Positions 6,133 to 49,228 of a DNA stretch of 64,000 nt are shown one piece after another. The position numbers and the translations under genes were made by a program. Source of the stretch: an uncultured Acidobacteriota bacterium. GTDB lineage: Bacteria > Acidobacteriota > Vicinamibacteria > Vicinamibacterales > UBA2999. The DNA lies in NCBI GenBank assembly GCA_963734635.1, contig CAVTIA010000012.1, positions 71,205-135,204 on the forward strand, written 5' to 3'. Every line of letters starts with the position of its first letter. Positions within the stretch are counted from its first letter, which is position 1. The notes beneath the pieces were generated by a model, which had not been told where the DNA came from, ran no database searches, and worked only from the letters and a program-made list of their open reading frames with translations.

Positions 6133-6225
6133 GACATCCTCCAATGGACCATCCCCCGCCCCGACCGGCAGGGCGGCCACGGGCCGCGAGAACGCGCAAT
6201 GGTACTGCGTTTAATGTGAGTACGG

Positions 6226-6249
6226 TAGCCGGAGACCTTCAGGTCTCCG
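6226..6249. repeat. REP-like element, type B (GTAG flank plus hairpin CGGAGACC-TTCA-GGTCTCCG)
   Basis: 8-bp perfect stem at 6230-6237/6242-6249 with loop TTCA, preceded by GGTAG. Same element in reverse orientation at 47389..47415. Confidence 0.8.
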
Positions 6250-10719: not shown

Positions 10720-10795
10720 GGTGGGTGTAGCTCAGGGGTAGAGCGCCTGACTGTGGCTCAGGAAGTCGCGGGTTCGAGACCCGTCACCCACCCCA
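10720..10795 (+). tRNA. tRNA-His: tRNA-His (anticodon GTG)
   Basis: Cloverleaf read by hand. Acceptor GTGGGTG/CACCCAC with an encoded G-1 (10720) opposite C73. Anticodon loop CTGTGGC. T-arm GCGGG-TTCGAGA-CCCGT. CCA is encoded. Confidence 0.9.
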
Positions 10796-11403: not shown

Positions 11404-13585
11404 ATGCGCATCTGGCCCGGCCAGCCGTATCCGCTCGGCGCTACGTGGACAGGCCTCGGCGTCAACTTCGCAATCTACTCCGCTAACGCCACGCGCGTTG
11501 AGTTGTGTCTATTCGACGCGGAACACCTCGACCGCGCGCCTACGTCGCTGCCGCTCCCGGAGCACACGGACATGGTGTGGCATGGCTATCTTCCGGACAT
11601 TCGGCCAGGGCAGTTGTATGGATACCGCGTGCATGGCCCATACGAACCGGAGGCCGGACATCGTTTCAATCCGAACAAGGTTGTCGTCGATCCATACGCA
11701 AAAGCCATCGGACGCCCGGTCCGATGGGACGACTCGATGTTCGGCTACGAAATCGGCAACCCCAAAGCAGACCTCTCCTTCGACACGCGCGACAACGCGC
11801 GATTCGCGCCGCTCGCGGGCGTGATCGATCCCGCATTCACATGGGGCGAGGATCGGGCGCCGCGCACGCCGTGGCACAAGACGGTCATCTATGAAATGCA
11901 CGTCAAGGGCTTCAGCCGGCTCCATCCAGGCATTCCCGAGCGGCTCCGCGGGACCTACGAGGCGTTAACCACAGAGGCGGCACTCGAGCACCTGACGCGC
12001 CTGGGTGTCACAGCCGTGGAACTGATGCCGGTGCACCATCACGCGTACGAGCGTCACCTTGCCGAGCGGGGGCTGTCGAACTACTGGGGATACAACACCC
12101 TCACCTTCTTCGCCCCCGATTTGCGCTACTCGACCTCAGGCAAACCGGCAGAGGCCGCGCGGGAATTCAAGCTGATGGTCAAGGCGCTCCACAGCGCGGG
12201 CATAGAAGTGATCCTCGATGTCGTGTACAACCACACGGCCGAAGGCAATCAGCTTGGACCTACCCAGTCGCTGCGGGGCATCGACAATGCCGCGTACTAT
12301 CGGCTCGTCCACGACAACCGGCGCTATTATCTGGACTTCACCGGCTGCGGCAACACACTGAACATGCAGAGCCCCCAGGTGCTGCAGCTCATCATGGACA
12401 GCCTGCGGTACTGGGTGCTCGAGATGCACGTCGACGGCTTCCGATTCGACCTGGCCAGCACGCTTGCGCGCGAGCTGTACGAAGTCGATCGACTCGGCGC
12501 CTTCTTCGACATCATTCATCAAGACCCCGCCATCGGCCAGGTGAAGTTGATTGCCGAGCCGTGGGACCTCGGTGCCGGCGGCTACCAGGTGGGCAACTTT
12601 CCCGTGCACTGGACCGAGTGGAACGGGCGCTATCGCGATGCGATGCGCGCGTTCTGGAAAGGCGACGGTCGCGGAGTTGCCGAGGTGGCAACGCGCATCG
12701 CCGGGAGCAACGACCTGTACGAACATAGCGGCCGGCGGCCGTACGCCAGTATCAACTTCATCACGGCGCACGACGGGTTCACGATGCAGGACCTCGTGAG
12801 CTACGACCAGAAGCACAACGAAGCCAACGGCGACAACAACGAGGATGGCGAGAACCACAATCTGAGCTGGAACTGCGGCGCAGAAGGACCAACCGGCGAT
12901 CCGGGCGTCCTCGCCCTTCGCGAGCGGCAGAAACGGAATCTCATCGCGTCGCTGATGCTTTCGGTGGGGGTGCCGATGATCAGTGGGGGCGACGAGATGG
13001 GACGTACGCAGCAGGGCAACAACAACGCGTACTGTCAGGACAACGAGATCAGCTGGACAAGCTGGGATCTGTCACTCGCCGAACAGCAGTTTCTCGCATT
13101 TACACGCCGTCTCGTGCGGTTTCGGCAATCCCAGCCGGTGCTGATGCGGCGAAAATACTTCCAGGGACGTCCCATTCGCGGCGTCGACGTCAAAGATATC
13201 TACTGGCTCGATTCGTCGGGACGTGAGATGACAGACGAGGCGTGGAATGCGCCCACCGTGACGATCGCTCGGCGTGCTGATGGTCGGCGACGCGCTGGAC
13301 GAGATCGACGAACGGGGCCGTCCAGTTCGAGGCGACACGCTGCTGATCCTGTTGAATGCGCACCCTGAAGAAACGCCATTTACGGTGCCGAGCATCGGAC
13401 CACGTACCACATGGCTTCGCGTGATCGATACGATGGCGGCACGTGTCGAAGAGTGCCGGTATCCGGGCGGGTCCACCTACCCGCTGCAGGGACGCACGTT
13501 GGCGCTTTTCGTCTTGAGCATGGAACGCCGCGAGCGCGCAGCGAGCCCGTCGGATTCAACGAATGAGCCGCAGAGAACCGACTGA
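11404..13585 (+). pseudogene. glgX: glycogen debranching enzyme GlgX, apparent frameshift near 13258-13273
   Basis: GH13 motifs [31 protein letters not shown]. Frame 1 ends in an Arg-rich tail. Frame 2 (13262 onward) continues ..[34 protein letters not shown].. to the stop at 13585. Confidence 0.8.
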
Positions 13586-15707
13586 CCATCCCCGTTCCGG
13601 GGCCATCGAGATGGCCGGCGTTCGAAACGGCGACGAGCCGAACCGTGCACGAATACCGTCGCGCGTGGTGATCGAGCGCATGCAGCCGCAAATCGACTGC
13701 GGCCGCTTCCCCGTGAAGCGCACGATCGGCGAAGCGCTCTTCGTCAGCGCGGACGTGTTCGCCGACGGACACGATCGGCTGGCCGGCGTGCTGCAGTATC
13801 GCCACTGTCATGGGGATTGGCGTGAAGTTCCGCTGACGTCGCTTGGCAACGACTCCTGGGGCGCGTCGTTCACAGTGACGCAGATCGGCGAATACGAATA
13901 CACGATGGAAGCGTGGATCGATCAGTTCGGATCGTGGCTCGCTGCGCTCTCCGCGAAAGCCGATGCCGGTCAGGACGTCGAAAACGAGTTGATTGAGGGA
14001 GGGAAGATTGTCGAGCGCGCGGCGGCAACGGTCCGGCTAAAGCCGGACGCCACGTACGACACGGTCCGGCTAAAGCCGGACACTACGTACGGTGGGAGTA
14101 CGCACGACGAGGAGGCCCGGCGGCTGCTGGAAATTGCGGCGGTCCTGCGAAGCAATCTCGCACAGCCGGTGCGGGTGGCGGCGGCCCGTGATCCCGAGCT
14201 CGCGCGGCTCATGAATTCCCGCCCCGACAGAAGCGCGGCCGCAACGGCGGACCGTCCTCTCAAGGTGATCGGCGATCCCGTGCGGGCGCGATTTGGCGCC
14301 TGGTACGAGCTGTTCGCGCGCTCCTGCACGAGCGACGCCGAACGACCCGGCACGCTGCGCGACGTCGAACGCCGACTCCCGGAGATCGCCGACCTCGGCT
14401 TCGACGTCCTCTACCTCGCACCCATCCACCCGATCGGATCCACCAACCGCAAGGGTCGAAACAACGCGCTCCGCGCGGCTGCCGGCGATCCGGGCAGCCC
14501 CTGGGCCATCGGATCGGATGCGGGGGGCCATACGGCGATCGATCCTGAACTCGGCACGCTCGAAGACTTCGATCGCCTTGTCGCCACCGCCGGGCACGTC
14601 GGAATTGATATCGCGCTCGATCTGGCGTTTCAGGTGTCGCCCGACCATCCCTGGACGAAGTCGCAGCCGGCATGGTTCCAGCACCGTGCGGATGGCTCGA
14701 TCAAGTACGCCGAGAATCCGCCGAAGAAGTACCAGGACATCTACCCCTTCGACTTCGAAACCGACGACTGGCGCGCGCTATGGGACAGCCTGCGGGATGT
14801 CGTGCTGTTCTGGGTCGCCCACGGCGTCAGGATTTTCCGCGTCGACAATCCGCATACGAAGCCGTTCGCGTTCTGGGAGTGGCTGATTGCCGACGTCCGC
14901 CGCCGGCATCCGGATGTGATCTTCCTCTCCGAAGCCTTCACCCGACCCAAGGTGATGCGGCGCCTCGCGAAGCTCGGGTTCAATCAGTCGTACACGTACT
15001 TCACCTGGCGGAATACGGCGCAGGAGTTGAGGGAGTATCTGACCGAGCTCACGCGCACGGAAACGCAGGAATATCTGCGGCCCAACTTCTTCGCCAACAC
15101 ACCAGACATCCTTCACGAGTACTTGCAACGCGGCGGGCGCCCCGCCTTCGAAGTCCGCCTGATTCTTGCCGCGACGCTGGCGGCAAGCTACGGCATCTAC
15201 AGCGGCTTCGAGCTCTGCGAGAACGCTGCCGTCAGCCCGGGCTCGGAGGAGTACCTGCACTCAGAAAAGTACGAGATTCGCCCGCGCAGCTGGAATCAAC
15301 CGGGCGCTCTCAACGAGCTTATTGCGCGCGTAAACCGAATCAGGCGCGAACATCGAGCACTGCAGTTCAACGGCACGCTGGCGTTCCACGAGGTCGAGAA
15401 TCGCGCGTTGCTGTGGTTCAGCAAGACGCCGCCCTCGAACGGGGTGGATCAATTCGATCCGCCTGGACCCGACTGGAATGCGCAAGTGTTTGTCGTCGCG
15501 AACACCGATCCTCACGGCATGCAGCACGGCCGCGTGCGCGTGCCGCTCCTGGAGCTCGGCCTGGACCCCCGCCAGCCGTACATCGTCGAAGATCTGCTCG
15601 ACGAGGCGCGTTACACCTGGCAGGGCGAATGGAACTATGTAAAGCTGGATCCTGCCGAGCGGATGGCACACATCTTCATCATTCGAACCCGTGTCTCAGA
15701 TAAGTGA
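13563..15707 (+). CDS. glgE: alpha-1,4-glucan:maltose-1-phosphate maltosyltransferase GlgE
   Basis: ..[24 protein letters not shown].., ..[22 protein letters not shown].., ..[12 protein letters not shown].., ..[13 protein letters not shown]... The ORF stays intact despite the internal repeat. Confidence 0.85.
14028..14093 (-). repeat. REP-like element type A, 2 x 33-nt tandem, inside the glgE reading frame
   Basis: Units at 14028..14060 and 14061..14093. Each has the hairpin GTCCGGC-TAAA-GCCGGAC. The reverse complement of 14063..14089 is identical (27/27) to the cores at 48728 and 48761. Translated as [22 protein letters not shown]. Confidence 0.9.
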
Positions 15708-19490: not shown

Positions 19491-20337
19491 ATGGCGCGAG
19501 CGCTCTGGAAAGGTTCAATTGCCTTCGGCCTGGTCAACATTCCTGTAGAGCTGCATACAGCGGTACGCGACTCGCGGCCTCGCTTCCGCCTGCTGCATGG
19601 TGATGATCACTCTCCCGTGAAATTCGAGCGGGTATGTGTGCGCGAAGGCAAGCCGGTCGCCTGGGAGGAACTCGTCAAAGGGTACGAATACGAGAAGGGC
19701 CGATTCGTTGTGCTCACCAAGGAGGACTTCCGGGCAGCCGCGCTCGAAAAGAGCCGGACGATCGACATCCGCAGCTTCGTGAAGGGTGAAGAGATCGACG
19801 ATCGGTTCTTCGAAAGCTCGGTACTATCTGCTCCCCGCCAAGGGAGGCGAACGCGCGTATGCGCTGCTCCGCGAAGCCATGCGTGACACTGGCCTGGTGG
19901 GGGTCGCCACGATCGTGCTCCGCGACGCGCAGCATCTTGCGGCGCTCGAAGTCGCCGACGAGGCCCTGGTCCTCACCCAGATGCGCTACGCGGAAGAGCT
20001 GGTCGACCCCTCGCAGTATTCGTTCCCTCTCGCGAAGGACATCAGGAAACCCGAGCTCGCGATGGCGGAGACGCTCGTGAAGAACCTCGCCGGCAAGTGG
20101 AATCCCGAGCGCTACCGCGACGAGTACCGCGACAACCTGATGAAAATCATCAAGGCCAAGAAGAAAGGCACCTCGCCGAAGCTCGTGGCCCACGCAGAAC
20201 CGCAGCGCGCGGAGGTCGTCGATCTGATGGAGCGGCTGCGCCAGTCGCTGCAGGAAGCGGGCGGGCCAGCCCGGAAATCCTCACGAGCCAGAAAGACGAA
20301 GAAGAAGACGGCCTCCGCGCGAAAGAAGGCGGCGTAG
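19491..20337 (+). pseudogene. ku: Ku DNA end-binding protein, frameshift near 19812-19822
   Basis: MARALWKGSIAFGLVNIPVELHTA.. in frame 3 up to ..EIDDRFFE. Frame 1 continues ..KARYYLLPAKGGERAYALLREAM.. to a Lys-rich tail. The junction lies at GAAAGC (an A-run apparently one base short). Confidence 0.8.
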
Positions 20338-22574: not shown

Positions 22575-22651
<77 letters not shown>

Positions 22652-22772: not shown

Positions 22773-22849
<77 letters not shown>

Positions 22850-22877: not shown

Positions 22878-25491
22878 TCATAACCCCGTCGTAACCCTCG
22901 TCGACGGCCTTCGTGAGCCAGCGCACGGCGTCGTCGTGACGGCCGAAGAATGGCAAGCGTGCTTCCAATGTGAAATTGCGCGTGATGCATGTGGGAAAGC
23001 CCGGTCGGGTTCTCCGCCGCAGGGGATGGCTGCGGCCATCGTGCGCTCGAGCGTCCTTCCCGACGGCCGAGTGCTGGCGTACGCGACTGCCGAGCAAGGC
23101 GAACGTGGACAGCGTCGGATTCCGGGTCGCCAACCTCCGTCTGACATCCACGGACGGAGCACTTCCACAGCGTTCCGACCGGTTGCCCGAGCGCAAGCAG
23201 ATGCGTCGAGCTCGGTATCGAGGCGCAAGAGACGAGTGCCATTCCGCTCCAGTTCATGGCGCACCTCCTCTAGCCGGCCGGCGTCGATGAGCGCGCTGGA
23301 GCCCTTCGGTTCGTCGACGCCGCAGCGCCTGGGGTCCAGCCGTTGCGCCTGCTCGTTCGCATCCACTGCCTTGTCCGTGAGTCCTATGTGGAGGTACACC
23401 TTTCCCAGTTCTATGTACGCTTCGGCCAGATTGGGATTGATTGAACAGGGCGCGCCGAAGGTCGGTGATGGCGCGCTCGTGGGGAAAACGGTTGCGCAGG
23501 TTCCACGTGAGCTGCGCACGCGCGAGATACGCCTCGGCTTGCGTCTGGATTGATCACAAGCGCCCGCTGGATATGGAGGAACGCCGTCTGCTCCAGGACG
23601 GGGTCGGTCGACGTCGTAGAAAAACCGCTGCGTGTACGCGCTGGCGAGCGCGGCGCCGCGCAAGCGCGAAGTTGGGATCACGAGCCGACCGCCCGTTCGA
23701 GCTCCTCGATGGCCGCCACTCGACCCGTCGCTCCAATCGGCCATGTTCGGCGTGGCGGATGAGCGTCCCTTGAGGTGCCAGATGCCGCGCAGATAGGCGT
23801 CGTACGCGTCGGATTCGTGGTGGCGAGCGACGGCGACGTCGCCGCCGGCTCCGCGCCGAACGTCCTGGCGAGCGTGGTGGCAATCTGCCGCGGAGATCGA
23901 TCATCCTGCGACGGTCCAGGACGTCGGTCAGCTCCCGGCTGTAGCGTTCGCTCCACAGCGCCGTGTCGTCGCGGGTGTCGACGAGGCTCACGTCGATTCG
24001 CACCATCCCGGCCGCGCGCTGCACAGCACCTCTGACGACCAGCTCGACACCAAGGTCGCGCGCGATGTCGCGGAGGCCGTCCTGTCCCGATAGGCGAAGG
24101 TGCTGCTCGACGCGATCACCCGCAGGCCTCCGACTCGCCCCAGCTCGGTCGTGACCGCCTCGGTAATGCCATCGGCGAAATATCGATCGCCCTCGCCAAT
24201 CGTCGTGAATGGAAGCACCGCGACTGATCGGAAGGTCAGACGTCACGGACGACCGAGGGGTCGGTCGCGAACGGCGGCGCCGTGCCCACGTACCACGTCA
24301 GCGCGCCGACGGCGATGAGCGCGACGAGCGACGTGACGACCGCCATCGCCCACGGCAGACGGACACGTGGTCGCGGTGGATCGACGATCGCGGTGTCCGC
24401 AGCCGTGCGAGCACTACCGCGGAGCGCGTCCTCGATCTCCATCCGCGCGTCCGCGATGTCGCGCAGCCGCCGCGTCGGATCCTTCTCGAGACAGCGCTGG
24501 AGCAGACGGCGAATGACCGGCGGCGTCGCACCCGGCAGCGTGTCCCACGCCGGCTCGCGCTCGAGGATGGCGGCGAGCGTGTCGGTCACGGTCGGACCGA
24601 GAAACAGGGCGCGACCAGTGAGCATTTCATGAAGCACACAGCCGAACGCCCAGATGTCGGTCCGCGTGTCGACCGTCAGACCGCGCGCCTGCTCCGGGCT
24701 CATATAGGCGGCCGTCCCGAGGATCACCCCTTCCCGCGTCCCACCCAGCGTGACCGTGGGTGAGCGCGACAGATCCGCCTCCGACCCGTCGCCGACGAAG
24801 ACCTTGGCGAGCCCGAAGTCGAGGACCTTTGACCGTCGCCATCCGGACGCAGTTTGATGTTGGCCGGCTTGAGGTCACGATGAATGACCCCCTGCTCGTG
24901 CGCGGCCGCGAGCGCCTCGCACATCTGTCGCGCGATCGTGAGAGCCTCACGCAGCGGGATGGGGCCTTGCGCGAGGCGATCCGCGAGCGTCGGCCCGTCG
25001 ACCAGCTCCAGCACCAACGCATGAATCCCGTCGGCGTCTTCGAAGCCGTAGATGGCGCCGATGTTGGGATGGTTGAGCGAGGCGAGGACCTGGGCCTCAC
25101 GTCTGAATCGCGCCAGGCGATCGGGATCGAGCGCGGAGAGTTCGGGAAGGACTTTGAGCGCGACGTCGCGGTTCAGCTGACTGTCCCGCGCGCGATAGAC
25201 CTCGCCCATCCCCCGGCCCCCAAGGGGCCGGTGATCTCGTACGGCCCGAGCCGCGTCCCCGCGGGGAATCGGCCTCGGCGTGGTCGGCGGTGTCGGCGGT
25301 GTCACTCCTCGTGCCGCACGCTCGAGAGACCCGTCGGTCGACACCGGCTGCACCAACAGTGACTCGATCTCCTCGCGCAACGTCGCGTCGCCGGCGCACA
25401 CCTCGTCCAGAAACGCCCCGCGCTCGTGCACCGGCCGCTCGTACGCCGCCTGATACAGCTCTTCGACCCGACGCCAGCGATCACCATGCAT
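22878..25491 (-). pseudogene. Ser/Thr protein kinase fused to a TolB-N-like domain and TPR region, shattered by many frameshifts
   Basis: Kinase (HRDLKPANIKL, then GTAAYMSPEQ in another frame). Then ..VLPFTTIGEGDRYFADGITEAVTTELGR.., ..DIARDLGVELVVRGAVQRAAGMVRIDVSLVD.., ..HESDAYDAYLRGIWHLKGRS.., ..INPNLAEAYIELGKVYLHIGLTDKAVDANEQAQRLDP... These pieces are spread over all three minus frames. Confidence 0.8.
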
Positions 25492-25520: not shown

Positions 25521-26117
25521 CTATTTTTCGCGTGCTTCTTGCCCGGTGCCCTTACCGTCACGCAGCTCGCGCAACAGCCACGCTTTCGCGAGCCGCCAGT
25601 CGCGCTTCACGGTGTCGGGCGACACGTCGAACACCGCAGCGGTCTCCTCCACGCTCAGGCCGCCGAAGAATCTGAGCTCGATCATGCGGCTCTTGCGTTC
25701 GTCCACACGCGCCAGCGCCTCCAGTGCATCGTCGAGCGCCACCAGGTCGCGACCCGGTTCATTCGGGACGACGAGTGCGTCGTCCAGCGTGATCCTGGCA
25801 GCGCCGCCACCACGTTTGTCGCAACCCTTCGATCGCGCGTGGTCCACGAGGATTCGGCGCATCAACCGGGCGGCCATCGCGAGAAAGTGCGCGCGGTTCT
25901 GCCAGTTCATCTGCTGAACGTCGACGAGTCTCAGGTACGCCTCGTTGACGAGCGCGGTGGGCTGCAGGCTGTGACCACCACGTTCCTCACGCATGCATCG
26001 CCGGGCGATCTGCTGCAGCTCCAGGTGCACGAGGGGAATCATCCGGTTGAGGGCCGCCTCGTCGCCGTGTCCCCAGGCCACCAACAGTTGGGTGATCCCC
26101 GCGGGAGGGGTCGGCAT
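25521..26117 (-). CDS. ECF sigma factor of the kinase-associated type (TIGR02999-like)
   Basis: MPTPPAGITQLLVAWGHGDEAALNRMIPLV.., ..LVNEAYLRLV.., ..ELRFFGGLSVEETAAVFDVSPDTVKRDWRLAKAWL... Intact. The kinase pseudogene starts 30 nt downstream. Confidence 0.8.
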   Translation of the reverse strand: MPTPPAGITQLLVAWGHGDEAALNRMIPLVHLELQQIARRCMREERGGHSLQPTALVNEAYLRLVDVQQMNWQNRAHFLAMAARLMRRILVDHARSKGCDKRGGGAARITLDDALVVPNEPGRDLVALDDALEALARVDERKSRMIELRFFGGLSVEETAAVFDVSPDTVKRDWRLAKAWLLRELRDGKGTGQEAREK

Positions 26118-26161
26118 GCCCCATTCTAGGCCGCTTTCCCGCCGATTCACCTATTCCGCGT

Positions 26162-26195
26162 CGTTTTCCGCCTCTCGAGACAGAGGGGGAAAACG
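26162..26195 (+). promoter_or_regulatory. leader hairpin CGTTTTCC-N18-GGAAAACG covering the SD of the first HExxH gene
   Basis: Arms at 26162..26169 and 26188..26195. The purine-rich AGAGGGGGAAAA lies in the 3' arm. ATG at 26199. A conserved copy lies at 26844..26880. Confidence 0.5.
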
Positions 26196-26198
26196 GAC

Positions 26199-26744
26199 AT
26201 GGCGAACACGGCGCGAAACCTCACGGCCGGCCTTGCCTGCACGGTCACTCTGCGAGTGGTTGTCTGGGCTCTATGGGTCGGAATCTTCGCGGATTCGGCA
26301 GGAGCAGAACCCCAGGTGCTCCTCGACTTCGTCGATAGCGACAGTCGGTTCGCCGTGCAGGGCGCCGTCGACGGGGCCGCGGCCCGTCTCTCCCGCCAGA
26401 GTTGTCAGGAGGTGCTCTCTGACCTCGCCGACGAATCGGGTCAAAGCCTCCAGACAAGGCTTCTCGCCCGCGGCAGCAGTCCCGCCGCGGCTTTCGCGGC
26501 GTTGCGGTTCGTCGACAGCCATGCGGCACCGCAATGCACCGCTGGTACGACATTGGCCTTCACACAGACGGGCTCGGCGGTCATTCACGTCTGTGCAAGA
26601 CAGTTCATGAAGCGATCCATGCGGAATCGCATGACTGCCGAGATCATCGTGCTTCACGAGTTCCTGCATACGCTCGGACTCGGTGAGAATCCGCCTACCA
26701 GCCAGGCGATCACCGCACAGGTCACACTCCGGTGCGGTGGATAG
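26199..26744 (+). CDS. secreted HExxH-motif protein (putative small metalloprotease), paralog 1
   Basis: MANTARNL.. plus a hydrophobic N-terminus. C-terminal ..IIVLHEFLHTLGLGE.. zinc-binding-type motif. Confidence 0.55.
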   Translation: MANTARNLTAGLACTVTLRVVVWALWVGIFADSAGAEPQVLLDFVDSDSRFAVQGAVDGAAARLSRQSCQEVLSDLADESGQSLQTRLLARGSSPAAAFAALRFVDSHAAPQCTAGTTLAFTQTGSAVIHVCARQFMKRSMRNRMTAEIIVLHEFLHTLGLGENPPTSQAITAQVTLRCGG

Positions 26745-26882
26745 GAAACGCCGCGCTTCGCGTGGGCGTGCGCGCCATCGCGAAAAGTGCGCGCGGTTCT
26801 GCCCCATTCTCGGTCGCTTTCGGGCCGGTTCACCTTTTCACCGCCGTTTTCCGCCTCTCGATACAGGAGGGGGAAAACGGAC
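26745..26882. repeat. duplicated segment: about 30-nt internal fragment of the ECF sigma gene fused to a second copy of the divergent leader
   Basis: 26773..26802 matches 25873..25903 (GCCATCGCGA(G)AAAGTGCGCGCGGTTCTGCC). 26803..26882 is colinear with 26121..26198, including hairpin 26844..26852/26872..26880. Confidence 0.75.
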
Positions 26883-27470
26883 ATGGCGAACAAGGCACGA
26901 AGTTTCAGGACCGGACTTGCTGTGACGATCACTTTGTTCACTGCCGTTCAGACGTTCGCTGCTGGGGACCGACAAGCGACGCTCATCCTCCATGTCGAGG
27001 ACTATGCCCGCATCCCCGCCGCGGATCGCTCGCTGGCTGAGGCGGAGGTAACGCGGATTTACGCGACGGCCGGCGTGCGCACAATCTGGGCCACTGGGAA
27101 CGAAAACGCCAACGTTCCCGGGCTGCATGTGCGCGTGATCCTGTTTTCCCGCGATGTCGCCATTGGGGAGTTCGTCTCGGAACGCGTGCCCGACAGCGTG
27201 CTCGGTCTGGCGGCGCGCGCGGCGGGGCGAGCGTACATCTTCACGCACAGGATCGCCAACCTGGCGTTGCAGCAGGGCGACGACTTCCGGCTGGTTCTCG
27301 GACGGGTCATAGCGCATGAGGTGGGACATCTCGTCCTGCCCGAGTACAGCCACTCGGACCAGGGCATCATGCGCGCGAACGTCGGCGTTCGCTCGAAAAG
27401 CGACCGCGAGTTCACAACTGAGCAAGCCGCCGTGATCCGCTCGATACTCTTGGCCGCGCCCCTCCCGTAA
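26883..27470 (+). CDS. secreted HExxH-motif protein, paralog 2
   Basis: MANKARSF.. plus a signal-like segment ..ITLFTAVQTFAAG. ..VIAHEVGHLVLPEYSHSDQGIM.. motif. Confidence 0.55.
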   Translation: MANKARSFRTGLAVTITLFTAVQTFAAGDRQATLILHVEDYARIPAADRSLAEAEVTRIYATAGVRTIWATGNENANVPGLHVRVILFSRDVAIGEFVSERVPDSVLGLAARAAGRAYIFTHRIANLALQQGDDFRLVLGRVIAHEVGHLVLPEYSHSDQGIMRANVGVRSKSDREFTTEQAAVIRSILLAAPLP

Positions 27471-30227: not shown

Positions 30228-30303
30228 GGGCCGGTAGCTCAATTGGCAGAGCAGCAGACTCTTAATCTGCGGGTTGGGGGTTCGATTCCCCCCCGGCTCA
30301 CCA
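30228..30303 (+). tRNA. tRNA-Lys: tRNA-Lys (anticodon CTT)
   Basis: Acceptor GGGCCGG/CCGGCTC (one G-U pair). Anticodon stem-loop GCAGA-CTCTTAA-TCTGC. T-arm GGGGG-TTCGATT-CCCCC. Discriminator A plus CCA. Confidence 0.9.
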
Positions 30304-31703: not shown

Positions 31704-34389
31704 ATGCCAATCGGCCCCGGCACCCGTCTTGGCCCCTACGAAGTCACCGCCCTGATTGGCGAAGGCGGTATGGGCAAGGTCTGGCGGGCGCATCACACGG
31801 CGCTCAAGCGAGACGATGCCCTGAAGGTGCTGCCGGATGGGTTTGCGTCGGACCCTGACCGGCTCGCTCGGTTCCGTCGCGAGGCACAGGTCCTCGCATC
31901 CCTGAACCACCCGAACATCGCCCACGTCTACGGGCTGGAGCAGTCGCACGGTGTGCAGGCGCTCGTCATGGAACTGGTTGAGGGGCCAACGCTCGCGGAT
32001 CGGATCGCGCAAGGACCGATTCCTGTTGACGAGGCGCTACTTATTGCGAAGCAGATTGCTGAAGCGCTCGAAGCCGCCCACGAAAAGGGCATCATCCACC
32101 GGGACCTGAAGCCCGCGAACATCAAGCTGCGACCGGACGGCACGGTGAAGGTGCTGGACTTCGGGCTGGCGAAGGCGCTCGAACCGGTATGGCCGGCACG
32201 CGTCGACGCGACGGCATCACCAACAATCACGTCACCCGCGATGATGACCGGAGTGGGCGTGTTGCTCGGAACGGCTGCTTACATGAGCCCGGAGCAGGCA
32301 CGCGGGAAGGCAGTTGATAAACGGACCGACATCTGGGCGTTCGGTTGTGTGCTCTACGAGATGCTTACGGGGCAGAGGGCGTTTGGCGGAGAGGATGTCA
32401 CGGAAACATTGGCCTCGGTCGTCAAGAGCGACCCAGCATGGGACGCTCTGCCTGATGGCGTGTCGCCAAGCGTGTGTGTGTTCCTTCGTCGATGCCTGCA
32501 GAAGAACGCGAAGCAAAGGCTTCATGCCATCGCGGATATGCGGCTGGCTCTTGATGGGGCGTTCGAGACAGCGGTTCGCACCGGACAGTCGGTGTCGGTC
32601 GCGCAGCCTGTGTGGCGACGGGCGCTCCCAATAGCCGTTACCGCCGTTGTTGCTATTGTCGCTACGGGAATTGCCGCTTGGAGCTTGTGGCCTGCGGTCG
32701 AGCTGCTGACGGTCAGTCGGTTCGACTATATCGTTCCCGAGGGACGGGACTTCAGAAGCATAGATCGGACTGTCATTGCCCTCTCGCCGGATGGTCGTCA
32801 CTTCGTTTACAACGCAACAGGCGGTCTGTTTCTCCGTTCGATGGGCGCCCTTGAGGCCCGCCCGATTCCTGGAACCGAAGATACGCTATTGAACCCTGCT
32901 TTCTCTCCCGATGGAGAAGCCATCGCGTATTTCCAGCAGAACCAACTGAAGCGCATCAGTCTCAACGGCGGCGTTCCAGTCGGCATCTGTGCCACACAAG
33001 TTCCCTTCGGTGTGAGCTGGGAGCGAGATGACACGATTCTGTTCGGCCAGCCGGGTGGCATTATGCGCGTGTCTGCTAACGGAGGGACGCCAGAACTCGT
33101 GATCAAGGCCAACGAGCGCGAACAACTCCATGGCCCACAGCTGTTGGACGCCGAGTGGGTGTTGTTCAGTGTCACGACTGTCATAGGGCCAACTCGGTGG
33201 GACCAAGCTCAGATTGCTGTGGAGTCACTTCGCACACGTGAGCGAAAGGTCCTGTTGCAGGGCGGGAGCGATGCTCATTACCTGCCTTCGGGTTACCTCG
33301 TGTATGCGGTAGGGGACACGTTGCTTGCCGTCGCATTCGATGCACGCCGGTTGGAAGTCACCAGCGGCCCCGTCTCGGTCATCGAAGGAACTATGCGCGC
33401 TGGACTTCCCGCGTCAGACAGCGGCACCGGTCACTACACCGTGGCCGACAACGGAACGTTGGTCTATGTGAATGGGAACGCCTTCAACTTGCCCGGCAGC
33501 TTGGCCTGGGTGGACCGTAACGGAAACGCAAAGTCGTTGAGCGACCGCGAAGCACCATATATAGCTCCGCGCATTCTCGCCCGATGGGGCGCGCGTGGCG
33601 GTAGGAATGCGAACGCCCGACGGCAACCAGGATGTTTGGGTTGTCGATGGAGAACGCGGCACACACACACGGCTGACGACGGACCCAGCGAATGACACGT
33701 TCCCTGTATGGTCACCGGATGGAACGCGCATTGCGTTCTCGTCCGGGCGTTCAGGCGCGAACGCGCTGTATTGGATGGCGGCGGACGGCAGCGGCGCCCC
33801 AAAGGAATTGACGAAAGCCGAGACGAACCAAGGCGCCACGTCATGGCTACGGGATGGGACGACGTTAGCCTTCTATGATGTCGGTGGAAGCTATGACATC
33901 TTCACTCTGAAGCCCGGAGAATCTCCGGTGCGGTTGGCGGAGACTCCGTTTCAGGAACGGGCTTCTTCATTTTCGCCGGATGGGCGTTGGCTTGCTTTCT
34001 CCTCCAATGAAACGGGTCGCCCGGAGATATACGTTACCGCCTATCCCGGTCCGGGCGGCAAGACTGCTATTTCGAGCGGCGGCGGGCGTTCGCCCCGATG
34101 GTCAGCGGATGGACGCGAATTGTTCTACCGCAATGGTCGGCAGATGATAGCGGTCAGTGTCGAACCAGGACCTACGTTTCGCGTGGGCACACCACGGGTG
34201 CTCTTTGAGGGCAATTATTTCCCCGAGACAGAAACCTCGGGCGCTCACAATTACGATGTCTCGCCTGACGGCCAACGGTTCCTGATGATTGCGCCAGCGG
34301 CACGCGAGGCCGGTGAGGAGGCTCGACCCAAGATTGTAGTCGTGCAAAACTGGCTGGAGGAGCTGAAGCGTCTCGTGCCTGTGAACTGA
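31704..34389 (+). pseudogene. Ser/Thr protein kinase with TM segment and C-terminal PD40/WD40-like beta-propeller, single frameshift near 33573
   Basis: MPIGPGTRLGPYEVTALIGEGGMGKVW.., HRDLKPANIKL, GTAAYMSPEQ. Frame 3 ends ..PYIAPR. Frame 1 continues FSPDGARVAVGMRTPDGNQDVWVVD..FPVWSPDGTRIAFSS..FSPDGRWLAFSS.. to 34389. Confidence 0.8.
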
Positions 34390-44642: not shown

Positions 44643-46289
44643 ATGCAGGAAGTCGTCTTCCGCGCCGGAATGACGGCGTACGCAGCGCGATACTGGTTAC
44701 CCGTTACCCGTCATGCCGCGCGGCCCGGACGGGCGCAAGCCGACGCACTGCGGCGCATACTCACCGCCAATCGAGCGACCGAGTTTGGCCATGCGCACCG
44801 GTTTGCCGCCCTGCGGACGCCGCGCGAGTTTCGCGAGCAGGTGCCGGTTCAGGAATACGAAACGCTGCGTGGATATATCGAGAAACAGCGTTGCAGCGGC
44901 GTCGCCGCACTGACGGCCGAGCCGCCCCTCTTTTATGCGCAGACAAGCGGTTCGACCGGCAAGCCCAAATACATCCCGGTCTGCGCATCGGCGCTCCGGA
45001 TGTACCGCACGGAGCAGGCGCTATTCACGTATCTGCAGTACCGCGCGAGCCCGACCGCATTTTCCGGCAAGGCGCTGGGCATTATGGGGGCCGCCGTCGA
45101 GGCGCGTCTGGACTCGGGCCACTCGGTCGGCTCCGTATCCGGCCACCTGTACGAATCGCTGCCCCGAACCGTGCAGTCTCGATTCGTGGTGCCTCCGTCG
45201 ATCTCGGCGATCGCCGACTACGACCTCAAGTACCTGACGATTCTGCGGCTCGCGCTCGCCGCGCCAGACATCACCTATCTCGGCTCTCCGAATCCGTCTA
45301 CGTTCCTGCGGCTTCTCGACATACTCAATCAACGGAGAGACGAGCTGGCGCACTCCCTGGAAACGGGATCCCTGCCCGAGCTCGATGCGCTCGATTCGAA
45401 CACGCGCGACATAATCCGACAGCGGCTGCGACCCGATAGCGCGCGTGCCGCGCAACTGCGAACCACGGCGCCGCTGACATTCGCGAGCCTGTGGCCCGGA
45501 ATAAGGCTCCTCACGACGTGGACCGGCGGAAGCTGCGGCATCGCGCTCGACAAGCTCCGGGCAACGCTTCCGCACGAGACGAAGGTGATGGAACTCGGGT
45601 ATCAGTCCACGGAATGTCGCGGCACAATCGCCCTCGAAGCCGAAACACAAGGGGGCTTGCCCCCGCTTCATCACCACTTCTTCGAGTTCGTGCGGCAGGA
45701 ACACTGGGAAAGCGGCCGGCAGGAATTCCTGGGGCTCGAGGAGCTGGAGCCGGGACCCCGGTACTACATCGTGATCACAACAGTCTCGGGGCTCTATCGG
45801 TACTTCATGAACGATCTGGTGGAGGTCGCCGGGCGGTATCGCAACACGCCACTCATCAGGTTCGTTCAAAAGGGGAAAGGGGTCACCAACCTCACGGGTG
45901 AAAAGCTCTACGAAGCGCAGGTCATTCAGGCAGTCCAGACCACCGCGCGGCAGCGCAGCTTCGTTCCGGGCTTTTTCATGCTCGTCGCCGACGAGGAGGC
46001 GTCTTCGTACAACCTTTTCCTCGAGACCGATCGTGCGATGACCTCTTCGATCCACGACGTCGCCGCGGATATCGACCGCCGCCTTGGCGAGTTGAACGTC
46101 GAGTATCAGAGCAAGCGCGCCAGCGGGCGCCTGGCGCTTCTGACGATCTCACTCCTCGCGGAAGGCGCCGGCGAAGCGTACAAGGCCGCGTGCGTGCGCG
46201 CGGGCCAGCGCGAGGGACAATTCAAGCCGGTCGTCCTTCAGTATCGAAAGGATCTCGCGTTGTCGTTCGGACCGTATGTCATCGAGTGA
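44643..46289 (+). CDS. GH3-family adenylating acyl-acid amido synthetase-like protein
   Basis: ..FYAQTSGSTGKPKYIPV.., ..YRYFMNDLVEV.., ..FVQKGKGVTNLTGEKL... 548 aa. Confidence 0.7.
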   Translation: MQEVVFRAGMTAYAARYWLPVTRHAARPGRAQADALRRILTANRATEFGHAHRFAALRTPREFREQVPVQEYETLRGYIEKQRCSGVAALTAEPPLFYAQTSGSTGKPKYIPVCASALRMYRTEQALFTYLQYRASPTAFSGKALGIMGAAVEARLDSGHSVGSVSGHLYESLPRTVQSRFVVPPSISAIADYDLKYLTILRLALAAPDITYLGSPNPSTFLRLLDILNQRRDELAHSLETGSLPELDALDSNTRDIIRQRLRPDSARAAQLRTTAPLTFASLWPGIRLLTTWTGGSCGIALDKLRATLPHETKVMELGYQSTECRGTIALEAETQGGLPPLHHHFFEFVRQEHWESGRQEFLGLEELEPGPRYYIVITTVSGLYRYFMNDLVEVAGRYRNTPLIRFVQKGKGVTNLTGEKLYEAQVIQAVQTTARQRSFVPGFFMLVADEEASSYNLFLETDRAMTSSIHDVAADIDRRLGELNVEYQSKRASGRLALLTISLLAEGAGEAYKAACVRAGQREGQFKPVVLQYRKDLALSFGPYVIE

Positions 46290-47400
46290 TCTCTCGATCG
46301 ATCGGTTGGAGTTCCGGGAGCTTGGCATTCGCTTCAAGACGGCATTCCGCCACGCAGCGGCGGAGCGTTCGGCAACCGAGACGGTCTGGATCGACGCGGT
46401 GGCCTCCGATGGGACGGTCGGAAGCGGCGAGTCGTGTCCAAGGTCTTACGTTACGGGTGAAACCATTGCCACGGCGCGCGCGTTCGTGTCGCGGCACGAG
46501 GCCTCGCTGCGGAGCAGCATTATCGACGTTGAAACGCTGCAGGCCTGGATGGCCGATCACGAGGAGGACATCGACGCCAATCCGGCTGCATGGTGCGCGC
46601 TGGAGCTGGCGCTCCTGGATCTGATCGGCAAGCACATTGGCGTAACGGTCGAAACGCTGCTTTCGGTACGACCGCTTGCCAACGCCGTTTTTCGCTATAC
46701 CGCCGTGCTCGGCGATGCCCCCGCAATCGCGTTTCACGCAATGGCCGAGCGCTATCGCGAGGTGGGTTTCCGCGACTTCAAGATAAAGCTGTCGGGCAGC
46801 GTGGAGCGCGACCGCGAGAAGATGGCAGTCTTCGACAAGTGGACCGAATCGGTTCGGCTGCGCGCCGACGCCAACAATCTCTGGCCTGCTGCAGACGAGG
46901 CGATCGACGCACTTGGCCGCCTCGGCTACGCGTTCTTTGCGATCGAAGAGCCAATTGGCAAGGACCAGCATGCCGAGTTGCCCCGCATCGCACGGGCATT
47001 GAATTGTGCCGTGATCCTGGATGAAAGCTTCTCCCGCGTCCAACAGCTGTCGCTCCTCTGCGACCCCGCTGCGATGTGGCTCGTCAACATTCGCGTTTCG
47101 AAGATGGGCGGATTGATCCGCTCGCTGCAGGTACTCGAAGCTGCGCGCGCGCGGGGAATCGGCGTCATCGTCGGCGCACAAGTCGGCGAAACGAGCCTGC
47201 TCACACGAGCGGCGCTGACGGTTGCATGCGCCGCGGGAAACACGCTCGTCGCCCAGGAAGGCGCCTTCGGAACCTTGCTCCTCGAACGTGATGTGTGCGA
47301 TCCGCCACTGATGTTTGGCGCGGGCGGCGTGCTCAATGCGTCTGCGTACCCCATGCTCGGGAAACCCGGGTTGGGCGTGACGTTCAATGCGGAGACCTGA
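46276..47400 (+). CDS. enolase-superfamily enzyme (mandelate racemase / muconate lactonizing / N-acylamino-acid racemase-like)
   Basis: ..FKIKLSG.., metal-ligand pattern ..RADANNLW.. / ..AIEEP.. / ..ILDES.., ..RVSKMGG... Start overlaps the GH3 end by 14 nt. Confidence 0.7.
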   Translation: MSSSDLSIDRLEFRELGIRFKTAFRHAAAERSATETVWIDAVASDGTVGSGESCPRSYVTGETIATARAFVSRHEASLRSSIIDVETLQAWMADHEEDIDANPAAWCALELALLDLIGKHIGVTVETLLSVRPLANAVFRYTAVLGDAPAIAFHAMAERYREVGFRDFKIKLSGSVERDREKMAVFDKWTESVRLRADANNLWPAADEAIDALGRLGYAFFAIEEPIGKDQHAELPRIARALNCAVILDESFSRVQQLSLLCDPAAMWLVNIRVSKMGGLIRSLQVLEAARARGIGVIVGAQVGETSLLTRAALTVACAAGNTLVAQEGAFGTLLLERDVCDPPLMFGAGGVLNASAYPMLGKPGLGVTFNAET

Positions 47401-47415
47401 AGGTCTCCGCCTACC
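47389..47415. repeat. REP-like element type B, reverse orientation, containing the stop codon of the enolase-superfamily gene
   Basis: GCGGAGACC-TGAA-GGTCTCCGC, a 9-bp stem at 47389..47410, followed by CTACC. The stop TGA at 47398..47400 lies in the loop. Confidence 0.8.
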
Positions 47416-47811: not shown

Positions 47812-47890
47812 TCGCGACCGAAGCCCGTTCTCTTTACACCCCGCCCGCATTAGGCTAATCTCGCGATTCACAGCTGAATTGAACCTATAT

Positions 47891-48727
47891 ATGCCCAAAA
47901 TCGCACTTGTCCTGGCGGGCGCCCTCATTGCTGGCATGCTCGCTGCCTCCACTCACGCTCAACAGCGCCCTGCACAACCTGCCAACACATCCGATGTAAA
48001 GGGCATCGTGTTCGAGCTGGCCAACTCAATGGGGATGCTGCGCGGTCTTCAGCAGGAGGATTCGATCCTCACGCTGGAACACTGGGCCAAAGGCACCATG
48101 ACGGTCGGGGGCCAGCGGTTCGACCTCCCGGAATACCGGATGAGCATCAACTTCAGCGTTCCGGGCGTGCGCCTCGATTACCGTCGCCAACCTGCCAGTG
48201 GACAGGCGCAGCGCGTCATCGAAGTGGTTGCGGGTCCCGTCGCGTGGAATGAGACCGATCGCGGCAGGGGCGCAACAGGGGCGCGCGACAAAGCGAAGGA
48301 ACGACTGGTCCAACTCTGGACCACCCCGATGGGTGTCGTGAAGGCAGCAACGTTGGCTGGCGCCAAAGCCACCATCAAGAATGCCGGCGGATCAATGGTG
48401 CTGTCGTTCCCGCTGCCGGCACCGGCCGACGATGTCACTGTGAACGCCACGTTGCGCCGGGACAACAGCCTGCTGATCCCAGACCCGGCAGCTCTCAAGA
48501 GCCTCGTCGGCACCTACATCGCCCGCGTGGAGACGACCGGTGGGGTGGTGAGCGATACGACTTACGCCGAATACGGTGACTGGAACTGGGACGACTATCA
48601 GGCGGACATCCTGCAGCCGCGCCGAATCACGAGGAAGCAGGGCGACATGTCGCTCGAGCTGATGACGGTCAACACCAACACCTATAATCCGTACGTCATC
48701 ATGCCGGTGCCCGACACCGTCAAGTAG
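47891..48727 (+). CDS. secreted hypothetical protein (LolA-like fold suspected)
   Basis: MPKIALVLAGALIAGMLAASTHAQQ signal. Its C-terminal pattern resembles the C-terminal half of the cytochrome at 50214. Confidence 0.55.
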   Translation: MPKIALVLAGALIAGMLAASTHAQQRPAQPANTSDVKGIVFELANSMGMLRGLQQEDSILTLEHWAKGTMTVGGQRFDLPEYRMSINFSVPGVRLDYRRQPASGQAQRVIEVVAGPVAWNETDRGRGATGARDKAKERLVQLWTTPMGVVKAATLAGAKATIKNAGGSMVLSFPLPAPADDVTVNATLRRDNSLLIPDPAALKSLVGTYIARVETTGGVVSDTTYAEYGDWNWDDYQADILQPRRITRKQGDMSLELMTVNTNTYNPYVIMPVPDTVK

Positions 48728-48787
48728 TACGTAGTGTCCGGCTTTAGCCGGACCTAGGAATACGTAGTGTCCGGCTTTAGCCGGACC
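48728..48787 (+). repeat. REP-like element type A, 2 x 33-nt tandem, intergenic
   Basis: The core TACGTAGTGTCCGGCTTTAGCCGGACC occurs at 48728..48754 and 48761..48787 (identical), starting 1 nt after the stop of the upstream gene. Confidence 0.9.
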
Positions 48788-48817
48788 GGGAATGTTGGAA
48801 GTCAGCGGAGGCAGACA

Positions 48818-49228
48818 ATGAAACCATGGACAGCTTGTAGCGTATTGGCCGCGGTGGTGCTCGCGCTGTTGACGGCTCCGCCGGCCGTGGCGCATCACGC
48901 CATTCAGGCAGAGTACGAAATGAGCGAGACGAAAGGCTTCACCGGGGTCATGACGCGGTTCGCCATGATCAATCCTCATTGCCGCTGGTTCTTCGAAGAA
49001 ACCAAGGCGGACGGCACCAAAGTGACGTGGGAGATGTCGGGTGCGGGCCCGCAGGCGCTGCGCGCCGCCGGTCTCGTGCGCATCTTCCAGATCGGGCAGC
49101 CCTACGAGGTGACGTTCGCGCCCGCGAAGAACGGGGCCAATGTGGGACGCGTGCGCACCATGAAGGGTCCCGACGGCAAGGTCATCACCTTGTTCCACGA
49201 AGACCCGACGGACCCACTCAACAACTGA
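48818..49228 (+). CDS. DUF6152-like periplasmic protein
   Basis: GGAGG RBS. Signal ..LLTAPPAVA-HHAIQAEY.., ..INPHCRWFF.., ..WEMSGAGPQALRAAG... Family recalled from memory. Confidence 0.55.
   Translation: MKPWTACSVLAAVVLALLTAPPAVAHHAIQAEYEMSETKGFTGVMTRFAMINPHCRWFFEETKADGTKVTWEMSGAGPQALRAAGLVRIFQIGQPYEVTFAPAKNGANVGRVRTMKGPDGKVITLFHEDPTDPLNN

Follow-up and report, generated by a model that had tools for sequence, protein, structure and literature searches.

The open reading frame (ORF) at positions 13563-15707 of a 64-kb stretch of DNA from an uncultured Acidobacteriota bacterium (64,000 nt, the whole of which is referred to here as the window) is, as judged from its sequence, a full-length GlgE of the GH13_3 group, since it carries the domains GlgE_dom_N_S (4e-53), GH13 Alpha-amylase and GLGE_C (1e-22) of the Pfam database and matches the GlgE structures of Streptomyces and Mycobacterium in the Protein Data Bank (PDB) with E values of 1e-183 to 1e-155 (about 1e-183 for 4u2y/3zss). 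The gene is flanked by a TreX-like isoamylase gene upstream and by a TreS-maltokinase fusion gene downstream, which is the usual neighborhood of the GlgE pathway. Two copies of a short palindromic repeat of the repetitive extragenic palindromic (REP) type stand in tandem inside glgE, two further copies lie between genes elsewhere in the window, and the origin of the intragenic pair is the subject of this analysis. The relevant features are the following.

13563..15707, plus strand: glgE (alpha-1,4-glucan:maltose-1-phosphate maltosyltransferase), 714 aa, assigned by Pfam, PDB matches and dN/dS
14028..14060, minus strand (orientation of the GTAG side): REP unit 1 in glgE, with the tag decayed to GTGG; the plus strand is read as 11 residues
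14061..14093, minus strand: REP unit 2 in glgE, with the consensus 28-nt core, plus strand CGGTCCGGCTAAAGCCGGACACTACGTA, read as 11 residues
48728..48754, plus strand: intergenic REP unit TACGTAGTGTCCGGCTTTAGCCGGACC, directly 3' of the TAG stop of ORF 47879-48727
48761..48787, plus strand: second intergenic REP unit, head-to-tail with the first (period of 33 nt); the probable start of a DUF6152 gene follows after about 30 nt

The initial annotation of this DNA, made from its letters, had described tandem 33-nt units at 14028-14093, and both their coordinates and their sequence were found as claimed, in agreement with Tandem Repeats Finder (period 33, 1.9 copies, 93% matches, score 114). Each glgE unit contains the hairpin GTCCGGC-TAAA-GCCGGAC, with a 7-bp stem and a 4-nt loop. 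The reverse complement of a 27-nt core of the array was likewise encountered twice at 48728-48787, as had been claimed, and the match extends to 28 of 28 nt between the reverse complement of 14062-14089 and 48761-48788; the two 62-nt dimers, that of glgE and the intergenic one, are 89% complementary over their full length. The other glgE core, that of unit 1, departs from the 27-nt core at the two positions that had been noted (TACGTGGCG versus TACGTAGTG), whereby GTAG-T becomes GTGG-C, and the GTAG tag is thus present in three of the four window units. The two glgE units are not identical to each other and differ at several positions, and the spacers between units also differ from one window site to the other (GTGTC versus TAGGAA/GGGAAT). 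The dimers are predicted to fold at -40.6 and -37.8 kcal/mol (z scores of -4.4 and -5.1). A 19-nt core occurs at four sites of the window when 0.01 were expected from shuffled sequences, and chance similarity was rejected on these figures; a CRISPR-like array or an ordinary peptide tandem repeat was rejected because the identical 28-nt DNA is also intergenic, in both orientations. At gathering thresholds, Rfam returned no RNA family at either REP site, its sole matches in the window being four tRNAs.

The 48.7-kb dimer is a normal extragenic representative of the family and follows closely on a stop codon, where REPs are usually found. The downstream gene, which encodes a DUF6152 protein, has a probable ATG at 48819 preceded by a GGAGG ribosome-binding site. 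In another genome (L116, approximately 390-880), a DUF6152 gene is also flanked by the REP of the window, and its presence beside this gene in both genomes suggests that the REP site is orthologously conserved.

The consensus of the family, G-TACGTAGT-GTCCGGC-TTTA-GCCGGAC-C, comprises a conserved element of 28 nt. When one genome per prokaryotic species was scanned with the pattern TACGTRGYGTCCGGCTTTAGCCGGAC, at least 116 stretches matched, almost all of them from Vicinamibacterales or from unclassified Acidobacteriota metagenome-assembled genomes (MAGs), several of which gave many, so that the repeat is dispersed in related genomes and the REP-like character that the initial annotation had supposed is genuine. 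At tag positions -5 to -2, the letters G, T, A and G were found in 205, 200, 172 and 204, respectively, of the 211 copies contained in these stretches and in the window; these counts are partly circular, as the retrieval pattern fixed G, T and G and limited the third position to A or G, and they are largely forced for at least one copy per locus because every locus was retrieved by that pattern. The window's own units display the tag independently of the retrieval pattern. Canonical REPs are recognized by a GTAG that lies outside a short stem-loop (PMC3733652), and the repeat, with its palindrome, its tag and its dispersed, mainly extragenic copies, is a GTAG-tagged REP family. By a crude criterion that combined long ORFs with G+C content at third codon positions, about 16 of the 211 copies fall in real coding sequences and approximately 92% fall outside long ORFs; a genic share far under the coding density is to be expected because these elements are usually harmful inside genes.

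With three mismatches allowed, 250 copies were recovered, of which 91 were singletons, and the adjacent pairs were head-to-tail in 48 cases, head-to-head in 27 and tail-to-tail in 20. The head-to-tail periods were mostly 28-36 nt, 33-34 nt being the commonest, and those of the head-to-head pairs were 24-28 nt. The 33-nt direct dimer, as found at both window sites, is therefore the commonest arrangement of the family, whereas Di Nocera et al. (PMC3733652) report that most REP families seldom form such dimers. This preference, together with the equal 33-nt period at the intergenic site of the window, would suit the proposal of the initial annotation that a preformed mobile dimer, similar to a REP or to a miniature inverted-repeat transposable element (MITE), landed in glgE, a recent transposition that would have been independent of other genomes.

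Exact REP cores were also seen on contigs of MAGs labelled Bifidobacterium (L011, L020 and L025, one of these contigs being 116 kb long) and on contigs assigned to Gemmatimonadales (L001, L003, L067), Solirubrobacteraceae (L023, L080) and Pyrinomonadaceae (L014); these are probably mis-binned Acidobacteriota contigs and not the product of horizontal spread. A second GTAG-tagged palindrome family, GTAG-[C/G]-CGGAGACC-TTCA-GGTCTCCG, is represented in the window at 6225-6249 (plus strand) and 47390-47414 (minus strand), two copies against 0 expected. One of them is intergenic, between divergent ORFs, and the other overlaps the 3' end of an enolase-superfamily ORF (46276-47400), whose TGA stop is supplied by the hairpin loop TGAA.

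As for the host gene, translation confirmed that the frame of ORF 13563-15707 remains open across both repeat units and that GlgE contains 22 extra residues, which correspond exactly to a 22-residue gap at the repeat in the HMMER alignment with Streptomyces GlgE, where the segment is absent. The dN/dS values of the window glgE against six orthologues (0.17-0.30) denote purifying selection, and a pseudogene was rejected because of these values; the gene is intact, and the insert appears to be tolerated in an enzyme gene, as had been presumed. An AlphaFold2 model of the protein, built with 22 close sequences in the alignment, was of mediocre quality as a whole, with a mean predicted local distance difference test (pLDDT) score of 62, but was confident in domain N/S. 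In this model, residues 158-179 are coil with a pLDDT below 50, and the flanking helices (residues 140-155 and 178-196) score 84-92. The 22 extra residues are thus predicted to form a disordered loop that links two domain S helices, and GlgE would tolerate the insert because this loop is disordered and variable in length.

The occupancy of this loop was then compared in the 120 closest GlgE proteins (61-95% identity), with orthologue DNA for about ten. Recognizable REP peptides were present in the domain S loop of 44 of the 120, as the VRLKPDTTY type only in 17, as the VSGFSRT type only in 3 and as both in 24. VSGFSRT is encoded by the same DNA as VRLKPDTTY in the opposite orientation (GTG TCC GGC TTT AGC CGG ACC), and the DNA of seven orthologues confirmed both REP orientations. 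In all aligned orthologues the first unit stands at one position relative to the codons of the conserved upstream helix, and the loop is occupied in orthologues down to approximately 62% identity (more than one synonymous substitution per synonymous site, dS), where the commonest state is an inverted pair. In these pairs the GTAG ends face inward (tail-to-tail, as in REPINs, the REP doublets that form hairpins), and hairpins of 28-29 bp with -58 to -78 kcal/mol are predicted inside the coding sequence. The inverted pair that characterizes REPINs was found in the glgE loops of L200, L201, L202 and L204 and not in the window, where both dimers are head-to-tail. The window's own group (87-95% identity) contains direct units only, in the following numbers.

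One unit: P0003, P0004/L199, P0006, P0009, P0011
Two units: the window, P0001/L198, P0005/L117
Three units: P0023
Four units: P0002/L197

Other clade members, among them P0018, P0049, P0052, P0056 and P0058, lack the insert. A metagenome scan for close glgE relatives gave three close loci, and the other 77 served as outgroups. In about 75 glgE genes of other phyla (27-50% identity), tblastn revealed a short loop with no hairpin, the sole hit in 273,726 nt being the close relative L117. The 22 residues are thus lineage-specific, being absent from Streptomyces GlgE and from these distant orthologues, and the outgroups that are devoid of the repeat are devoid of the segment as well. The loop residues that flank the units are hypervariable in sequence and length, and the units persist among them. 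In a further orthologue (L118, approximately 1966-2050; P0007 type, a cluster of 38 sequences), a 60-nt in-frame, palindrome-rich insert splits the REP hairpin of the glgE loop inside the loop of the hairpin itself, and the protein reads VR-QPPSPAKRASASLAGASGGGG-PDTT, that is, an insertion nested in an intragenic REP.

These comparisons make a recent arrival of the dimer highly improbable. The position is already occupied in the distant orthologues, relatives that are more than 87% identical hold one, two, three or four units at an identical junction, and the 5' units of the window, P0001, P0005/L117 and P0002 have diverged in different ways, which places the array before the split of these alleles (dS about 0.09-0.15). 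Moreover, the differing spacers at the two window sites indicate that the dimer is no mobile unit of fixed form, and neither terminal inverted repeats beyond the hairpin nor target-site duplications were seen at either window site or in the aligned orthologues, so that the MITE label did not hold. The REP origin of the segment is therefore upheld, but not its recent landing as a dimer; a junction shared down to approximately 62% identity and one to four units among relatives argue that the window dimer arose by a local tandem change in copy number.

The same alleles bear on whether the 33-nt duplication, or the REP itself, might be an assembly error produced by a chimeric join at the repeat. 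Assemblers can be misled by short palindromic repeats, and an exact-protein look-up gave no identical record for the 714-aa protein. Nevertheless, the same in-frame arrangement is present in independent assemblies of other samples with two (P0001/L198 and P0005/L117), four (P0002/L197) or one (P0004/L199) units, and neither the reading frame nor the flanking GlgE sequence, both of them conserved, is interrupted. Because independent assemblies carry one to four units and the units of the window differ from each other, a chimeric assembly of the window glgE appears very unlikely, and an artifact at this locus is barely credible.

The explanation that we favor, and that we regard as a whole as likely to be right, is that the window contains an old insertion of a GTAG REP in the GlgE loop, of which the dimer is a local copy-number state. 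The comparisons show that a REP, most likely as an inverted pair, has been present in the domain S loop since a time before a large clade diverged. In the most economical history, the arm in the opposite orientation would then have been lost in the sub-lineage of the window. The remaining 33-nt unit would change locally in copy number (from one to four), probably by slippage during replication or by unequal recombination of one unit with another, and the window represents the two-copy state. As to the original spread of the family, we infer from the GTAG tag only, by analogy with GTAG REPs elsewhere, that it may have been driven by a REP-associated tyrosine transposase (RAYT), an IS200/IS605-like tyrosine transposase of the HUH type, which would be the expected mobilizing enzyme.

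Several observations weigh against this account. Neither the window nor 844 kb of loci that contain REPs, a small and biased sample of 8-kb snippets, yielded a RAYT by any of three approaches: a regular-expression search for HUH...Y..NP motifs in the 5,084 ORFs of this sample detected no RAYT/Y1 transposase, phmmer with an approximate E. coli RayT query gave a best E value of 1.2, and Pfam recognized in nine REP-flanked ORFs only ordinary genes (GNAT, DsbA-like, cytochrome c, MOSC, DUF6152 and others) and no PF01797. These negatives are no evidence of absence, because the loci are snippets and the query was an approximate E. coli sequence. For the source genome, the evidence amounts to two sites with four units within the 64-kb window, the sole part examined. 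More demanding is the conservation of the units themselves. In L200-L202, 24-26 of the 27 nt of the VRLKPDTTY units agree with the family consensus, and rare codons, CTA-Leu for instance, are among the matching letters, at the same time as synonymous sites relative to the window are saturated (dS 1.1-1.4) and the codons of identical residues are identical at a fraction of 0.51-0.54. The REP nucleotides are thus conserved above synonymous sites, which a single ancient insertion explains poorly. In addition, deeper orthologues carry at the same loop a variant pair, RLKPAPT...GAGFSRP, in which the outer stem pair has changed from T-A to G-C in both units (L204, 4424-4540; L203, 2743-2877; P0047, P0065, P0071, P0072, P0081, P0082 and P0113). 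The arms of L204 match over 32-nt windows and are predicted to form a helix of 29 uninterrupted pairs with -78 kcal/mol, and no intergenic copy of the RLKPAPT/GAGFSRP variant was found in the 14-16 kb around the variant loci. An old insertion does not suffice here, and either renewal of the units or selection for their structure has to be added. Three explanations are conceivable: the units may be renewed from time to time, through new insertions beside a REP already in place or through conversion by copies elsewhere; their structure may be selected; or the loop may attract insertions repeatedly, as a hot spot whose junction is fixed.

An extension of the favored account would be that the intragenic REP or pair is no neutral baggage and is kept by selection or by continual homogenization; for example, an mRNA or DNA hairpin could act on the expression of the glgE-treS/mak operon, or the units could be renewed by a REP-mobilizing enzyme or by gene conversion. 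The near-consensus units in a background of saturated synonymous sites, their persistence amid hypervariable flanking residues and the change of the stem pair in both units in deeper lineages (VRLKPD/VSGFSRT versus RLKPAP/GAGFSRP) speak for such maintenance. However, many orthologues contain decayed units (VSGLSRT, VSAFSRT, ASGSSRT, VRLEAD, VRLSDD), many lack one arm or the whole insert, and the arms of L200 and L202 are imperfectly complementary; moreover, the switch to the variant may be a single phylogenetic event, which makes the covariation statistically weak. On this balance, which draws on sequence comparison, maintenance of the pair appears rather unlikely. It is improbable, too, that the glgE REP or REP pair is a conserved structured nucleotide element, kept throughout the clade by selection for a hairpin that tunes the operon or by renewal through the REP machinery. 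If that were true, compensatory stem changes would be concerted in both arms and copy number would be a tunable state.

The old insertion in the GlgE loop is not the only case of a translated copy. Three of the six frames of the element are free of stops, one of them reading GPAKAGHYV, so that translation can run through a REP copy with a length divisible by three. All three open frames were found in unrelated genes with real Pfam domains around or flanking the insert, namely in a ThiS-ThiF-rhodanese protein (in a linker), a short-chain dehydrogenase/reductase (SDR), a sulfatase-histidine kinase, a radical SAM protein (three units), a class I/II aminotransferase (two units within the domain) and another GlgE with four units (L026, P0012 type). 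In this last protein, three units in both orientations occupy the domain S loop, and another variable loop, close to the C-terminal domain, contains a fourth, of the VRLKPDTTY type, at approximately position 618. Two further candidates, situated 5' of a DUF2400 and of a TAtT gene, are more probably copies in the 5' untranslated region than translated ones. When concatenated REP peptides were compared with a collection of 5.8 billion proteins, 305 hits were obtained at E values of 10 or lower, mostly short ORFs of 57-180 aa; a few have real domains, and the short ORFs are likely to be over-calls across REP arrays, or fragments, so that these hits lend weak support to the breadth of the family.

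REPs inside genes have been described before. Intragenic REPs with a GTAG or CGTC tag occur in several phyla (Di Nocera, De Gregorio and Rocco, 2013, BMC Genomics 14:522; PMC3733652), with examples in Opitutus terrae, Thauera, recB of Xanthomonas and Rickettsia conorii; those with GTAG are often dimers that encode 20-30 residues, and two Xanthomonas species carry different REPs at about one site of recB (PMC3733652). Like the family of the window, these REPs are palindromes of 20-40 bp with GTAG outside the stem, are mostly extragenic near the 3' ends of ORFs and are found in a minority of cases inside unrelated ORFs. Unlike them, the sequence family of the window and its host clade, the Vicinamibacterales, are not included in that catalogue, and a single loop of GlgE is filled throughout a far deeper clade, by units of either orientation and in differing numbers. 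In-frame intragenic REP dimers are thus already published (PMC3733652), and the window case fits that description; what is new is the sequence family with its host clade, the predominance of head-to-tail arrays, and the depth and variety with which one loop is occupied. A full-text literature search for the peptides of the family retrieved no paper. The REPs of the window do not reveal a new kind of system.

Other known systems resemble the window REPs in part. REPIN-RAYT systems were reportedly described by Nunvar et al. in 2010, and they were also studied by Bertels and Rainey (2011; PMC3116915). The GTAG-tagged hairpin is common to both cases, and the inverted pairs of the orthologous glgE loops, which fold into one long hairpin, have the REPIN architecture; in contrast, the copies of the window are direct and head-to-tail, REPINs are described as extragenic, and the loci searched here yielded no RAYT gene. 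The palindromic elements of Rickettsia (RPEs), which Ogata et al. are said to have reported in Science in 2000, offer a functional resemblance only, in that an in-frame palindromic insert occurs in many unrelated genes and the added peptide is tolerated by the host fold. RPEs are in-frame palindromic repeats of protein-coding genes (summarized in PMC10969869), are CGTC-tagged (PMC3733652) and measure about 100-150 bp in an alphaproteobacterial genus of obligate intracellular bacteria, whereas the window units are 28-33 nt long, GTAG-tagged and carried by free-living soil Acidobacteriota; neither the length, the tag nor the host of RPEs applies to them. The dimer at 48728-48787 recalls the bacterial interspersed mosaic elements (BIMEs) of E. 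coli, where clusters of REP hairpins likewise lie just 3' of stop codons. In BIMEs the REP orientation alternates, and they bind integration host factor (IHF) and gyrase; the window units differ in that they are in direct orientation.

In the GlgE loop, a selfish or structural DNA repeat is translated within a housekeeping enzyme, and this natural example, from a poorly studied soil phylum, is well documented. This one loop offers a deep series, from zero to four direct units through inverted pairs and variant pairs to a nested insertion, which could be used to gauge the persistence of intragenic REPs, renewal versus selection, and the gain of loop length in proteins. GPAKAGHYV and the other REP peptides also mark REP-derived segments and can point to spurious short ORFs in Vicinamibacterales annotations.

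Elsewhere in the window, a truncated-looking ORF with a Ku domain (19786-20337) is situated 3' of the glg operon, a place taken by Ku plus LigD in orthologous loci. A direct duplication with approximately 80-83% identity (26117-26252 versus 26800-26936) covers the upstream region and the start of two adjacent small genes, and a 116-nt inverted match of 79% joins two distant ORFs (24615-24730 versus 32256-32371); these duplications probably correspond to paralogous genes. The tRNA genes are located at 10721-10792, 22575-22648, 22773-22846 and 30228-30300, and two of them, which lie 198 nt apart, are 86% identical.

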